64,000 nt of DNA from positions 453,731 to 517,730 of the forward strand of contig CAVUCU010000005.1 in NCBI GenBank assembly GCA_963740085.1. The letters are read 5' to 3'. This document shows positions 9,047 through 49,130 of the stretch, one piece after another. Numbering within the stretch: the stretch's first letter is position 1; every line of letters starts with the position of its first letter. The DNA comes from Nitrospirota bacterium (GTDB taxonomy: Bacteria; Nitrospirota; UBA9217). The notes below the pieces were generated by a model, which saw nothing but the letters and a program-made list of their open reading frames with translations, was not told the origin of the DNA and did not search any database. A program made the translations under genes and the position numbers.

Positions 9047-9709
9047 CTACTGTTCTATAATCTCCGTCCCCTTCGGGGCATTAAAAACAAAGCGCTGATC
9101 GTCGACACCCGCGCCTTCCCGGATGTCCGAAAAGGTTATCGTGGTCATGTTCCCCGATTTGTCGAATATCGTAATCTCCATGATCCGGCCGGCGTCATCG
9201 ACACGGAGGCGCATCTTCTTCATGGCCGCCCCCGGTTTCCTGGGCAAAAGCTCAAGGTCGCGCGGCTTCTTCGGGTCCGCCTCCAGCACGTCGAAGTCGT
9301 CACGGATGCGGGCAGCGCCGAGCAGGAAAGCCACGGGGATGTTCATGTGCTCGAAATCCGTGAAGGTCTTCTTGATCACCTGCTCGCTCTTCTTTGAATA
9401 GAACAGCGCGGCCTTTCCGTCGATGAGAATAAGCTGTCCGTTTGAAAACTCGAGCCGGAGCTTGCCCGGCTTCTTGATGAACAGCTTCCCCTCGTACTTC
9501 TGCGTTTTGCCGATGGACTTGAGATCGTTTTTCTGAATGACCTTCGCCGTGAGGTCGTTAAGATCCCGGTAATGGTTCTCGACAGAGGCGATCGTGTCCT
9601 GCAGGGTCTGGGCGTATGCAGGCTTGACCACAACGGATGCAGTGAACAGCAGAAAAAGAGCAGCCGACACGAGACAGGATCTTCTGCAATGCAGGTAAAA
9701 ATTTATCAT
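9047..9709 (-). CDS. lolA: Outer-membrane lipoprotein carrier LolA
   Basis: Signal peptide, GKLFIKKPGKLRLEF, C-terminal FVFNAPKGTEII. Confidence 0.85.
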   Translation of the reverse strand: MINFYLHCRRSCLVSAALFLLFTASVVVKPAYAQTLQDTIASVENHYRDLNDLTAKVIQKNDLKSIGKTQKYEGKLFIKKPGKLRLEFSNGQLILIDGKAALFYSKKSEQVIKKTFTDFEHMNIPVAFLLGAARIRDDFDVLEADPKKPRDLELLPRKPGAAMKKMRLRVDDAGRIMEITIFDKSGNMTTITFSDIREGAGVDDQRFVFNAPKGTEIIEQ

Positions 9710-9823
9710 ATCGTCCTCCCGACTGAAGCATCATACCATAAATGATACGGGCTGAGAAGATGGAAAATGGTCTTCATCTTCAAATCTTGACAACGCTGTT
9801 TTCCAGGATTATCATGGGACTCC

Positions 9824-11647
9824 ATGAGCCCTCGCATACGGACTGATATTTCCCCGGTTCACAATACACTCCGCACAGTCTTCGGTTTTGAGTCCTTCCG
9901 TCCGAATCAGGAGACGCTCATCAGCAACATCCTGGATCGACGAGACGTCTTCGCAGTCATGCCGACGGGCGGCGGAAAGTCCCTGTGCTATCAGCTCCCC
10001 GCGCTCTTGCTGGAGGGAACCGCGGTCGTTATCAGCCCCCTCATCTCTCTCATGAAGGACCAGGTGGATGCGGCGCGGGAAAATGGAATTGCGGCCGCGT
10101 TCATGAACAGCTCGCTTGACCAGCGGGAGATGGCGAATATCGAGCGCATGCTCAAGGCCGGTCAGGTCAAGCTCCTCTACATCGCGCCGGAACGCTTCGC
10201 CATGCCGCGGTTCATCGAGACGCTCAAGGGCATCCCTCTCTCGCTCTTCGCCATCGACGAGGCACACTGCATCTCCGAGTGGGGCCACGATTTCCGGCCC
10301 GACTACCTCGCCCTTTCCGCTGTTCCGGAAATCTTTCCCAACGTCCCCGTTGCCGCCTTCACTGCCACGGCGACCCCGAAGGTCCAGCAGGACATAATTC
10401 ACAAGATCGGGCTCAGGACACCCTATACCGTTCGCGCATCGTTCAACCGGCCCAACCTCTTTTACCAGGTCAAGCCCAAGGTCAGGATTGAACAACAGCT
10501 TTTGGACTTTTTGAGAAGCCACGCTGGTGAATCGGGGATCATCTACCGGACGACCCGGGACTCGGTCGAGGCAACAGCGGATTTCCTTGCCTCCCACGGC
10601 ATTAAGGCGCTCCCCTACCATGCCGGCCTGTCCGCCGAAGAACGCGAGAAGAACCAGGAGGCGTTCAACAGGGATGAGGTCCCGGTGATCGTGGCGACCG
10701 TTGCCTTCGGCATGGGCATCGACAAGTCGAATGTCCGGTTCGTGGTCCATGCTGATCTCCCGAGACATATCGAGGCCTATTACCAGGAAACGGGCCGCGC
10801 CGGGCGCGATAATGAACCGGCTCATTGCCTGCTCTATTTCAGCCGGGGCGACATCCCGAAGATACGATATTTCATCGACAAGATTCAAGACGAAACGGAA
10901 CGCGTGATCGCCGTGGAGAAGTTGAACCAGACGGTGCGGTTCGCCTCGCATAATGTATGCAGGAGAAAACAGCTCCTCTCTTTTTTCGGCGAGATGTATG
11001 CTGCGGATAATTGCGGAACCTGCGACATCTGCACCGGCTCGGTGAGCCGGACCGATATCTCAACCGATGCCCGGATACTTATGTCTGCCATGGCGAGGGT
11101 GAACGAGCGGTTCGGTATCGTCCACATCATCGACATCGTTATTGGCGCGGACACCAGGCGCATCAGGGAACTCCGGCATCACGAGCTTAAGACCTTCGGC
11201 GCAGGAAGGCTTCAGGACAAAAACCACTGGCGCAACATTGTGAACGAACTCCTTGCCCAGGAATTGATCAGACAGGACGGGGATCGTTACCCGGTCTTAA
11301 AGATCACGCCCAGGGGCTTGGAAGTACTCGCTGGAAAACAAGAGGTGTTCGGTCTCAAGCGGGAAGAGGCGAAAACAAAGGAGCGCCGCAGGAAAACAGA
11401 TGAAGGCGGCTGGTATGACGAGACCCTCTTTGATCGGCTGCGCGTGATCAGAAAAAAGATTGCCGGAGGGAACCAGGTGCCTCCCTACGTTATATTTTCG
11501 GACAAGACACTCCATGAGATGTGCAGGCAGTTCCCGAAGACTTCTTCTGAGATGCGGAGAATATCCGGCGTGGGAGAGGTGAAGCTTCAGCGGTATGGAG
11601 AGGACTTCCTGGAAGAAATACGGAGCTATGGCGGTAACGGCAGATGA
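9824..11647 (+). CDS. recQ: ATP-dependent DNA helicase RecQ
   Basis: FGFESFRPNQ, MPTGGGKSLCYQ, DEAHCISEWGHDFRP, QETGRAGRD, Zn-binding RQC and C-terminal HRDC. Confidence 0.97.
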   Translation: MSPRIRTDISPVHNTLRTVFGFESFRPNQETLISNILDRRDVFAVMPTGGGKSLCYQLPALLLEGTAVVISPLISLMKDQVDAARENGIAAAFMNSSLDQREMANIERMLKAGQVKLLYIAPERFAMPRFIETLKGIPLSLFAIDEAHCISEWGHDFRPDYLALSAVPEIFPNVPVAAFTATATPKVQQDIIHKIGLRTPYTVRASFNRPNLFYQVKPKVRIEQQLLDFLRSHAGESGIIYRTTRDSVEATADFLASHGIKALPYHAGLSAEEREKNQEAFNRDEVPVIVATVAFGMGIDKSNVRFVVHADLPRHIEAYYQETGRAGRDNEPAHCLLYFSRGDIPKIRYFIDKIQDETERVIAVEKLNQTVRFASHNVCRRKQLLSFFGEMYAADNCGTCDICTGSVSRTDISTDARILMSAMARVNERFGIVHIIDIVIGADTRRIRELRHHELKTFGAGRLQDKNHWRNIVNELLAQELIRQDGDRYPVLKITPRGLEVLAGKQEVFGLKREEAKTKERRRKTDEGGWYDETLFDRLRVIRKKIAGGNQVPPYVIFSDKTLHEMCRQFPKTSSEMRRISGVGEVKLQRYGEDFLEEIRSYGGNGR

Positions 11648-47464: not shown

Positions 47465-47974
47465 TTACCTGCCGCCCTGCTTTTTGGAGATCTCAAGGCT
47501 GAGGGCCGCCGAGATGGCCTGGTTAATATTGAACCGGCTGATCGCCAGGGCAATGGCTGACGGCCCCTTGCCCCTGTTTGCCCGCATGCAGTGGAGATCG
47601 CGAAGGCTGTTCCCATCCGCCGTGCATTTGCCCTCGCCGAGGATCACCAACCGGACCTTTTTGAAAAGATCGATCGTCTTGCCATTCCCCGGGATCGCGT
47701 TCACGCGAAACTCGAGGCGGCGCAGCTGCTGGTCGATGTCACGATAAAAATCCTGGTGCCGGCTGAATGCGGCCTTTTTCGTCCCGGATTGCGCGATCAG
47801 CGTTTCGATGAAATCATCGGTCTTTTGCTGGATGGTCGTCAGGCTTTTATCCGTCACTTCGTCATAGTCGGAAATAAGCTTGACTTCCGCGCACCCGGCC
47901 AGCAGGACCGCGCAAAGCACGGCGATCCAATATGTCAGGACCTTTTTTCTCGACAAAGTCATCCCCTTCATCAT
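47465..47974 (-). CDS. Hypothetical lipoprotein
   Basis: Lipobox LLAGC, GGAGGA RBS before ATG 47974. Confidence 0.7.
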   Translation of the reverse strand: MMKGMTLSRKKVLTYWIAVLCAVLLAGCAEVKLISDYDEVTDKSLTTIQQKTDDFIETLIAQSGTKKAAFSRHQDFYRDIDQQLRRLEFRVNAIPGNGKTIDLFKKVRLVILGEGKCTADGNSLRDLHCMRANRGKGPSAIALAISRFNINQAISAALSLEISKKQGGR

Positions 47975-48048
47975 GTCCTCCTGCACGCGACGGTGCAACA
48001 ACGGCCCCTCTTCTCTCCGGAGAGCGAAATCGCGCGGCCGTCTTTATG

Positions 48049-48873
48049 TCACACCGCTTTCTTCCTGGCTCTGAAAAGGGCACCTTCGGTGTAGGGAGAA
48101 GTTCGGAAACCCGTCATGCCGGTGAACAGTATGTCGGCAAAGCCCGCCTTCCGAAGCATCAGGAGCTGGTCCCCGACCGGGACCGCGCCGCCGATTCATT
48201 GCGACCATGCCTCGGCGCTGCCTGCCATGCCCTGGGGCAGTTCCTGCTCCGTCACCACATCGGCGAAACCAAACCAGCCCCCCGGTTTCAGCGACCGGTT
48301 GATCTCGCAAAACAAGGTCTCTTTATCCGGCGAGAGATTGATAACGCCGTTCGAGATGACCGCATCAAAGGTGTTGTCCTTGAAAGGCAGACGTTCCGAC
48401 GCCACTTGCAGGACCTCGGCATTTGCAATGCCTGCCCGTTGGATATTGTCGCACGCCCTCGCCACCATGGCCTCGGTCAGATCGACACCATATACCCTGC
48501 CGTTGGGCCCGGTCAATCGCGACGCGATGTACAGGTCAAAGCCCGCGCCGCAGCCGACGTCGAGGATGATCGTTCCCGGCCGGATCGGGAACAGGGAAAA
48601 GGGATTGCCCACTCCGCAAAAGGATTCGAGCAGGTCGGGAAGGGCAGCGTCGATGAGCGCGGGATCATACTTCAGCGCGCGTGCGCCCTCCCGGCCCGTA
48701 GGGTAGGCGAACTTTCCCGAAGCCGACTGTGCAACCTCGGAATACTTGCTCCGCACCGCGCTCCTGATCTCTTCCGGCAACAGCCCCGTTTGCTGCAGTC
48801 CCGGCTGTCGGCACCCACCGGTGCCGCTCGATGGCGCTCAGACCGGACCGAGAATGTGTTTCTGTTCTTCCAT
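48049..48873 (-). CDS. ArsM-like SAM methyltransferase, putative selenoprotein with two Sec (274 aa)
   Basis: ATG 48873 with GAGGTG RBS; in-frame TGA at 48840-48838 and 48198-48196; FCGVGNPF, LDVGCGAGFD, ISNGVINL; coding-like continuation AWSQ-U-IGGA..TSPYTEGALFRARK. Confidence 0.85.
48168..48184 (-). promoter_or_regulatory. Bacterial SECIS-like hairpin for the C-terminal UGA
   Basis: 11 nt after UGA: GGUCCC-GGUCG-GGGACC; possible lower stem AUCGG/CUGAU. Confidence 0.8.
48809..48826 (-). promoter_or_regulatory. Bacterial SECIS-like hairpin for the N-terminal UGA
   Basis: 11 nt after UGA: CGGCACC-GGUG-GGUGCCG, perfect 7-bp stem with a GGU-led loop. Confidence 0.7.
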
Positions 48874-49130
48874 GGATCACCTCACCGTTTGTCAACCGTG
48901 CACGTTCAGGCGCTGAGGTTTCTTGAAATTGATTGACAAGACATTGTAAAGGAGTTTGAAGACCTCCCTCATGGTACCTTTAACCGGTCTGATTATAGCA
49001 CGTGTTGAGGGTCCTGTCTTCAACCACTTCTCGTAAAATTTTCAGGGACGCCCGATCGCATCACGTCGTGCTAGAATTAGAACAAGAGTATTTGGCGCAT
49101 GAGATGGTCAGTGAAAAGGGAGGTGTTATT

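Follow-up and report, generated by a model that had tools for sequence, protein, structure and literature searches.

The DNA analysed here (the window) is a stretch of 64,000 nucleotides from a Nitrospirota bacterium, positions 453,731 to 517,730 of contig CAVUCU010000005.1 in assembly GCA_963740085.1, and it carries on its minus strand a methyltransferase gene whose reading frame contains two internal UGA codons. Translation with table 11 gives, as the sole open reading frame (ORF) in this frame, a 194-residue middle piece, which a first-pass annotation made from the DNA letters had proposed to extend in both directions. The frame does extend, running from 48873 to 48049 through 274 codons, of which the 12th and the 226th are TGA, and ending in a further TGA; its translation gives the peptides that had been read at the two ends, MEEQKHILGPV-U-APSSGTGGC and AWSQ-U-IGGAVPVG...RARKKAV, where U stands for selenocysteine (Sec). 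The ATG at 48873 had been credited with a good ribosome-binding site, and GGTGAGGTGA is found at 48886-48877. A candidate extended -10-like word, TGCTATAAT, lies ~120 nt upstream of the methyltransferase ATG (window 48992-49000, minus strand).

From the comparisons described below, we consider it very likely that the gene is real and intact and that it encodes, from this ATG, a 274-residue protein with two Sec residues. Judged by its sequence, the two-Sec gene is a variant of the known Sec-containing ArsM-like methyltransferases, and its function is predicted. The features on which this description is built are collected in Table 1.

Table 1. Features of the two-Sec methyltransferase gene, in window coordinates. 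SD, Shine-Dalgarno; SECIS, selenocysteine insertion sequence; SAM, S-adenosylmethionine.
Feature	Position	Strand	Detail or basis
Coding sequence, two-Sec ArsM-like methyltransferase (predicted)	48049..48873	-	274 residues plus TGA stop
SD-like word GGTGAGGTGA	48877..48886	-	3 nt upstream of ATG 48873
UGA codon 12, Sec12 of the N-terminal arm (predicted)	48838..48840	-	In frame in 62 distinct orthologs and in 45/45 alignment rows
SECIS-like hairpin 1	48809..48826	-	Stem CGGCACC/GGUGCCG, loop GGUG, 11 nt after UGA1
Cys21, putative partner of Sec12 (U-x8-C)	48811..48813	-	Cys at +9 in 33/62 orthologs
Cys86 in FCGVGNP	48616..48618	-	Two residues upstream of the ArsM Cys72 position; invariant (45 rows)
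SAM-binding motif DVGCGAGFD, residues 105-113	48535..48561	-	Pfam; D105, G107, G109, G111 and D113 invariant (45 rows)
Gly176 at the ArsM Cys174 position (SNGVINL vs ArsM SNCV)	48346..48348	-	Alignment to Protein Data Bank entries; invariant (45 rows)
UGA codon 226, Sec226 at the ArsM Cys224 position (predicted)	48196..48198	-	Alignment to solved ArsM; TGA in 89/89 loci
SECIS-like hairpin 2	48158..48195	-	Apical stem GGUCCC/GGGACC (48184-48168), loop GGUCG, plus lower stem; 11 nt after UGA2
Terminal TGA, codon 275, true stop	48049..48051	-	Stop codons of orthologs

Conservation of the two UGA codons and their hairpins

A six-frame search of 41 related genomes (E<=1e-30) finds the gene in 20 of them. 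In ten of these 20, one of them the window's own genome, the matched stretch contains two or three TGAs, and translation places both UGAs at identical positions in all ten. A scan with one genome per species adds 80 further loci, mostly from Nitrospirota (the closest being 85% identical) and from metagenome-assembled genomes (MAGs) of Desulfobulbales/Desulfocapsaceae, with further carriers in Deferribacteres, Methylomirabilia, Eisenbacteria, Brocadia and Uabimicrobium. Orthologs also occur in two cultured isolates, Desulfosediminicola flagellatus IMCC35005 (L117) and Desulfopila aestuarii DSM 18488 (L126). The motif CGVGNP is present in 89 of the 90 loci examined, all 89 of which have TGA at the second site, and in 69 of them a further TGA lies in frame 60-100 codons upstream and is followed by Pro at +1 or +2 (one of the 69, L111, is doubtful, and the filter missed one true case, L110).

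De-duplication leaves 62 distinct two-UGA ORFs, mainly from Nitrospirota and Desulfobulbales; outside this set fall L082 and L126, for which the search pattern was too strict, and L118, which has an extra stop. In all 62 the two TGAs share a frame that is free of other stops, across a spacer of 69-98 codons between the first U and the core. In most of them the distance from the start ATG to UGA1 is 13 codons, and in 45 an SD-like word lies 4-16 nt upstream of the N-terminal start. The frame closes at the same place throughout, with TAA or TAG in 35 of the 62 and TGA in the other 27. A third Sec at the terminal TGA was considered for the window's gene and rejected, because the 26 codons between it and the next TGA show no conservation and 35 orthologs use another stop codon. 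In L118 (L118:97-960), which comes from an uncultured Desulfopila MAG on a 1.5-kb contig, the extra in-frame stop falls in SNGAINLCP*K and marks either a pseudogene or an assembly error.

A G+C-rich hairpin with a GGU-led loop was claimed to begin 11 nt behind each UGA, and stems and loops of this kind are located at both sites (Table 1). We compared the 62 genes with 11,363 in-frame control windows drawn from these genes themselves, counting stems whose apex lies 21.5-27.5 nt from the U of UGA. A stem of at least 6 bp is present at site 1 in 44 genes and at site 2 in 56, as against 7.7% of control windows; for stems of at least 5 bp the counts are 53 and 61, as against 21.1%. The stem at site 1 persists while the peptide that it encodes changes (GTGGCR, AGGHQL, DGRQD), and its variants include CUGAC/GUCAG, CCGGU/ACCGG, CUGGC/GCCAG and GGCACC/GGUGCC. 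Among 19 sequences that share one register at this site, none of 500 shuffles matched the covariation score, and three pairs alternate between two Watson-Crick types, UA (12) and CG (7), GC (13) and AU (5), and CG (8) and UA (7). At site 2, four of five pairs covary: pair 16-30 is AU in 42 sequences, GC in 27 and GU in 7, and pair 19-27 is CG in 66 and UA in 11. A scan of positions 47900-49000 against Rfam with E up to 10 returned no SECIS family and only two chance-level matches.

The genome also encodes the means to read UGA as Sec, as the first-pass annotation had asked to have confirmed. The selA (607.8 bits) and selB (376.5 bits) genes lie side by side on contig 3, both above their cut-offs, with a tRNA-Sec (anticodon tca, 66.7 bits) 5 kb beyond them, and selD (351.1 bits, above cut-off) is found at G000:C1:750805-751725 (locus L018). 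This selD contains one in-frame TGA and would thus itself be a selenoprotein. TGA is otherwise an ordinary stop in this host, terminating 14 of the 29 ORFs of at least 300 amino acids in the window. Contigs assembled from four DNA runs, all of one study and possibly including the source sample, cover both TGAs without any difference, and two of these contigs differ from the window at 5-9 other places nearby. Among 20 sequencing runs listed for the sequence, none is an RNA run. Taken together, the frame, the Sec genes, the conserved UGAs and the hairpins supply three of the features by which a bacterial selenoprotein is recognised, namely the machinery, a conserved in-frame UGA and a stem with a G-rich loop.

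An ArsM-like core with a predicted N-terminal Sec arm

Pfam assigns class-I methyltransferase domains to the protein (Methyltransf_31, _11 and _25), and an AlphaFold model built with 45 orthologs has a mean predicted local distance difference test score (pLDDT) of 89.9. The best matching folds in the Protein Data Bank are the As(III) methyltransferases 4fr0, 5evj and 6cx6, with template modelling scores (TM-scores) of 0.66-0.71, root-mean-square deviations of 2.2-3.0 Å and 28-31% identity. On the strength of this model, the protein is a SAM-dependent methyltransferase of the ArsM/AS3MT fold. Its N-terminal and arsenic-binding domains superpose on those of CmArsM (4fr0, 4fs8, 6cx6), CrArsM (5evj) and human AS3MT (8xt7). 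Unlike these solved As(III) SAM methyltransferases, it lacks the C-terminal third domain and is shorter, at 274 residues compared to ~320-390.

Four cysteines, Cys44, Cys72, Cys174 and Cys224 in CmArsM chain numbering, define the ArsM family. The HMMER alignment to CmArsM pairs U226 with C224, G176 with C174, T59 with C44 and V88 with C72, so that the second UGA falls on the metalloid-binding Cys, as had been proposed. The closest cysteine to the C72 position, C86, stands two residues ahead of it (FCGVGNP vs ArsM FYGCGS), and Gly occupies the 176 position in every locus where the motif pattern matched. The core thus keeps its SAM site and one metalloid ligand position, in the form of a selenol, while C174 and C44 are lost and the C72 equivalent has moved. 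U12, C86, G176 and U226 are invariant in all 45 aligned two-Sec orthologs, and C21 is not.

Sec-containing ArsM proteins have been described before. A Sec-containing arsenite methyltransferase is listed in the GOS selenoproteome (PMC2398784), and Table 1 of a 2026 survey (PMC13188914) gives the one-Sec ArsM ('UxxG'; NF008823/PRK11873) as experimentally verified, citing Fomenko et al. (2007); the suspicion that the C-terminal Sec belongs to a catalogued family is borne out by this entry. The survey reports 119 prokaryotic selenoprotein families, with subfamilies split by Sec position, and its methyltransferase entries comprise ArsM (UxxG, one Sec), MduS (CxxU, two), methyltransferase/UXPK-star (two), ArsM/DUF2284 (two) and ArsM/AhpD (three). 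It attributes NF047649 (methyltransferase/UXPK-star), NF041536 (ArsM/DUF2284), NF041537 (ArsM/AhpD) and NF045649 (MduS) to Haft and Tolstoy (2025). None of these entries, as the survey lists them, has an N-terminal Sec arm. Our literature searches found no N-terminal Sec in ArsM-like proteins, and the word methyltransferase is absent from the deep-Sep and BSepDB papers. Sec at the second site has been known since 2007; the arm Sec appears to be uncatalogued in the survey and the NCBIfam models compared here.

The window's protein shares with the one-Sec ArsM its fold, its SAM motif, a Sec at the W-x-x-U-I-G-G position and a SECIS hairpin behind it. It differs in adding an N-terminal Sec on a disordered arm, in having Gly for Cys174 and no Cys at the Cys44 position, and in the shift of the Cys72 equivalent by two residues. 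The ArsM model NF008823 gives 191.7 bits, below its cut-off of 263. Better NCBIfam matches come from three 'exception' models, which align with residues 34-273 only (E ~1e-81 to 1e-77) and also stay below cut-off: NF047649 (273 vs 460 bits), NF041536 (259 vs 575) and NF041537 (274 vs 510). MduS (NF045649), scored on the close relative P0228, gives 36 bits against a cut-off of 380, and no NCBIfam selenoprotein model reaches its cut-off on the window's protein. The proteins behind these four models combine an ArsM-like core, in which the UxxG site holds Sec, with additional Sec located in a C-terminal tail or domain. The window's protein has no such tail or domain, and none of the models covers the arm.

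The first-pass annotation had singled out the arm as the unusual part, and this agrees with the absence of any NCBIfam model over it; searched alone with E up to 10, the arm matched no model in that collection. Residues 1-28 have a pLDDT below 50 and are predicted to be disordered. The near-invariant residues of the arm are the U and a Pro at +2 (54 of 62 orthologs), and no others. The partner Cys is more variable: the U-x8-C arrangement seen in the window, with Cys at +9, holds in 33 of the 62, and its spacing is not universal, since the Cys lies at -7 in 15, at -1 in 5 and elsewhere in 5, and is absent from -10 to +14 in 4. More distant relatives of the SNG type (34-41% identity) lack the arm and carry Cys at the second site. 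In a quick maximum-likelihood tree (86 rows, midpoint root) the Sec forms group together (support 92) with the Cys forms outside, and 16 armless one-Sec genes form one clade (support 100) that is nested among the two-Sec genes; a seventeenth row classed as 'one-Sec', L107, is truncated on the 5' side. This topology, on a midpoint root that is not secured, fits a single loss of the arm.

In public annotation these genes are either broken at the two UGAs into fragments of 179-222 residues or translated with Trp in place of Sec. The truncated forms go by the names 'arsenite methyltransferase', 'SAM-dependent methyltransferase', ubiquinone/menaquinone methylase ('UbiE'), 'methyltransferase domain-containing protein' and 'hypothetical protein'. 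Several full-length metagenome calls on short contigs (P0015, P0020, P0032, P0040 and others) have Trp at both Sec sites, which looks like gene calling with TGA as Trp (code 4) and would mislead alignments. In this way an enzyme that occurs widely among bacteria of anaerobic sediments and groundwater (Nitrospirota, Desulfobulbales and others) escapes arsM surveys and selenoproteome counts.

Two relatives extend the arm further. In genomes G008 (L034:1543-2634, minus strand) and G021 (L033=L085), an 85-90-residue domain with a third UGA, in the motif NDPxGxRU, precedes the arm in the same frame. This domain scores 45.3 bits with NF045708 ('NEPxGxxU motif selenoprotein TsoC'), just above the cut-off of 45, and the fused N-terminal domain of L034 matched no Pfam family. 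The fused TsoC-like domain is a hint at a redox function. In G008, and in this one locus only, selD (CAGUAAK) lies directly downstream of the fusion. A truncated second copy of the methyltransferase with two TGAs (L045) follows ~2 kb further on. A search for TsoC in the window's genome gave no match, but the control genomes were likewise without one, and the negative carries little weight.

Proposed chemistry and competing explanations

As a whole, we think it probable that the locus encodes a two-Sec methyltransferase of the ArsM fold, working by a mechanism of the following kind. Both internal UGAs would be recoded to Sec by SelB, each by means of its own downstream hairpin. A soft metalloid substrate would be methylated while held by a remodelled site made up of Sec226, Cys86 and the selenol of Sec12. 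In the simplest model, the disordered 28-residue arm may swing into the active site and so bring Sec12 as the third ligand for a trivalent metalloid. Beyond the residues of the core, the Sec of the arm is the only invariant chalcogen. In canonical ArsM, a C44-C72 disulfide serves in the resolving step. The arm could stand in for the absent Cys174 and Cys44, whether as third ligand, as resolving residue or as both, and Sec12 and/or its partner Cys would resolve an oxidised intermediate by forming a selenenylsulfide. This bond would then be re-reduced, and the enzyme reset, by a redox partner that is external or fused. For the arm as ligand or relay taken by itself, we put the chances at a little under even.

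Mammalian thioredoxin reductase offers an analogy, since its C-terminal Gly-Cys-Sec-Gly tail is a mobile redox arm. There too a flexible terminal peptide carries Sec and a neighbouring Cys, and the arm described here would likewise shuttle between a buried site and the outside. The likeness ends there, as fold and chemistry are unrelated and the arm of the window's protein is N-terminal. If the arm Sec does act as ligand or relay, the enzyme would be an example of an ArsM active site rebuilt around two selenols. It would then bear on the cycling of arsenic, antimony and selenium in anoxic habitats, and on the use of Sec where a Cys version seems not to exist.

Several observations weigh against this reading. 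The contact between arm and active site is pure conjecture, because AlphaFold does not place the arm. The hairpins, folded alone as 61-nt segments, are no better than shuffles (z = -0.13 at site 1 and -0.42 at site 2), so that the window by itself does not beat chance and the comparison of orthologs does. In the window's own register at site 1 (35 sequences) the stem is conserved and its covariation is weak, with the observed values reached in 31-49 of 500 shuffles; the share of paired cells in any register is also inflated, because sequences were assigned to registers by hairpin position, a bias from which the control-window test is free. Differences in the arm are spread over the codon positions as 294/175/260, so that the third position lacks the excess that well-conserved coding sequence would show. 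Three of the four canonical ArsM cysteines are out of place, with only position 224 kept, as Sec. No ars genes lie near the methyltransferase, and the genome's acr3 (459 bits, above cut-off) is on another contig (G000:C1:798039-799028, locus L133) and unlinked. There is also no conserved neighbour, the commonest family occurring in 6-7 of 89 clustered loci when the gene's own overlapping frames are excluded. A role in arsenic metabolism is uncertain for these last reasons, the missing ars linkage and the missing conserved neighbour.

The usual interchange of Cys and Sec is also seen at only one of the two sites. The first-pass annotation had suggested looking for it at both, and site 2 does have Cys in solved ArsM and in the SNG-type relatives. 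At site 1, no Cys arm was found in the 89 loci. None was found either in 21 aligned public proteins, the query counted, where 19 of the 20 calls have W at both sites and one is armless with Ser at site 2. Among the best 150 of 125,663 representative matches, none aligns to profile positions before 26.

The most serious competing explanation accepts the two-Sec enzyme and gives it a substrate other than arsenic: a selenium or tellurium species, mercury, another soft electrophile, or a protein or small-molecule thiol or selenol. The earlier proposal of a two-Sec metalloid methyltransferase accordingly divides here. Both UGAs, the hairpins and the Sec genes support its two-Sec part, and 'metalloid methyltransferase' is drawn from fold and motifs. 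The loss of C174, C44 and the exact C72 position, the ArsM model score below cut-off and the lack of ars neighbours speak for another substrate, as do the selD that directly follows the gene in one relative and the TsoC-like domain fused in two. However, the nearest folds and sequences are all As(III) methyltransferases, the single residue kept in place is an arsenic ligand, and the selD neighbourhood is confined to one locus, with no neighbour family in more than 7 of the 89 clustered loci. We regard a non-arsenic substrate as possible, at somewhat less than an even chance. For the two-Sec enzyme as we describe it, As(III) or Sb(III) is our first choice, at somewhat less than even odds and favoured because of the fold, and Se/Te species or Hg are the alternatives, favoured because of the lost cysteines and the missing ars linkage; we hold this ranking tentatively. 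It is also conceivable, if unlikely, that the family represents a distinct metalloid-handling class of methyltransferases and not arsenite methyltransferases of the ordinary sort. Here an obligate-selenium swinging arm (U-x-P, with no Cys version seen) would capture a Se, Te or Hg species and deliver it to a Sec226/Cys86 site, and the enzyme would be linked to a selenoprotein relay of the TsoC kind.

A second explanation takes UGA1 to be the true stop of an 11-codon leader ORF, with a one-Sec ArsM-like enzyme starting downstream, for example at TTG 48780. An in-frame TTG does lie 20 codons past UGA1 in the window, and public gene callers place the start of the protein at that downstream codon. 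The sister clade of 16 armless one-Sec genes further indicates that the core can work without the arm. These points must be set against the orthologs, 26 of which (of 62) have no in-frame ATG, GTG or TTG between UGA1 and the core, while just 5 have such a start preceded by an SD-like word. The frame is held over the 69-98-codon spacers, the sequence past the supposed stop keeps U-x-P and a Cys close by, and a SECIS-type hairpin stands at the right distance in 44-53 of the 62 genes. A leader ORF at this position seems to us very improbable.

Least probable of all is that the two in-frame TGAs arose as errors of assembly or sequencing, that the gene is a pseudogene or that TGA is a sense codon in this genome. 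Some public ortholog calls do read both sites as W, in the manner of code 4, and L118 does have its extra stop, but the same two TGAs recur in 62 independent assemblies and in the contigs of four runs, TGA ends long ORFs of the window and 27 of the 62 genes themselves, and the full Sec machinery is present.

Neighbouring genes and a related ArsM

In the window, the two-Sec methyltransferase gene is surrounded by a divergent F420-dependent NADP oxidoreductase-like gene and by genes for isocitrate dehydrogenase, a 2-hydroxyacid dehydrogenase and a ClC channel, together with a lipoprotein-like ORF and two small ORFs, all three without a Pfam match. The lipoprotein-like ORF (window 47465-48001, minus strand) begins with ATGATG directly downstream of the methyltransferase, and its signal contains …LLAGC. 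Between these two genes lies a hairpin whose fold is not significant (z = -0.84).

A separate observation concerns L050 (genome G017, contig 324, match 9582-10259), an ArsM of the canonical type with GCGNP, SNCVINL and Cys at the 224 site. Its frame contains a single TGA, in the context C-U-P, where canonical enzymes have their N-terminal cysteine behind the first helix. Another ArsM lineage would thus also have Sec followed by Pro (U-P), here at the classical position.

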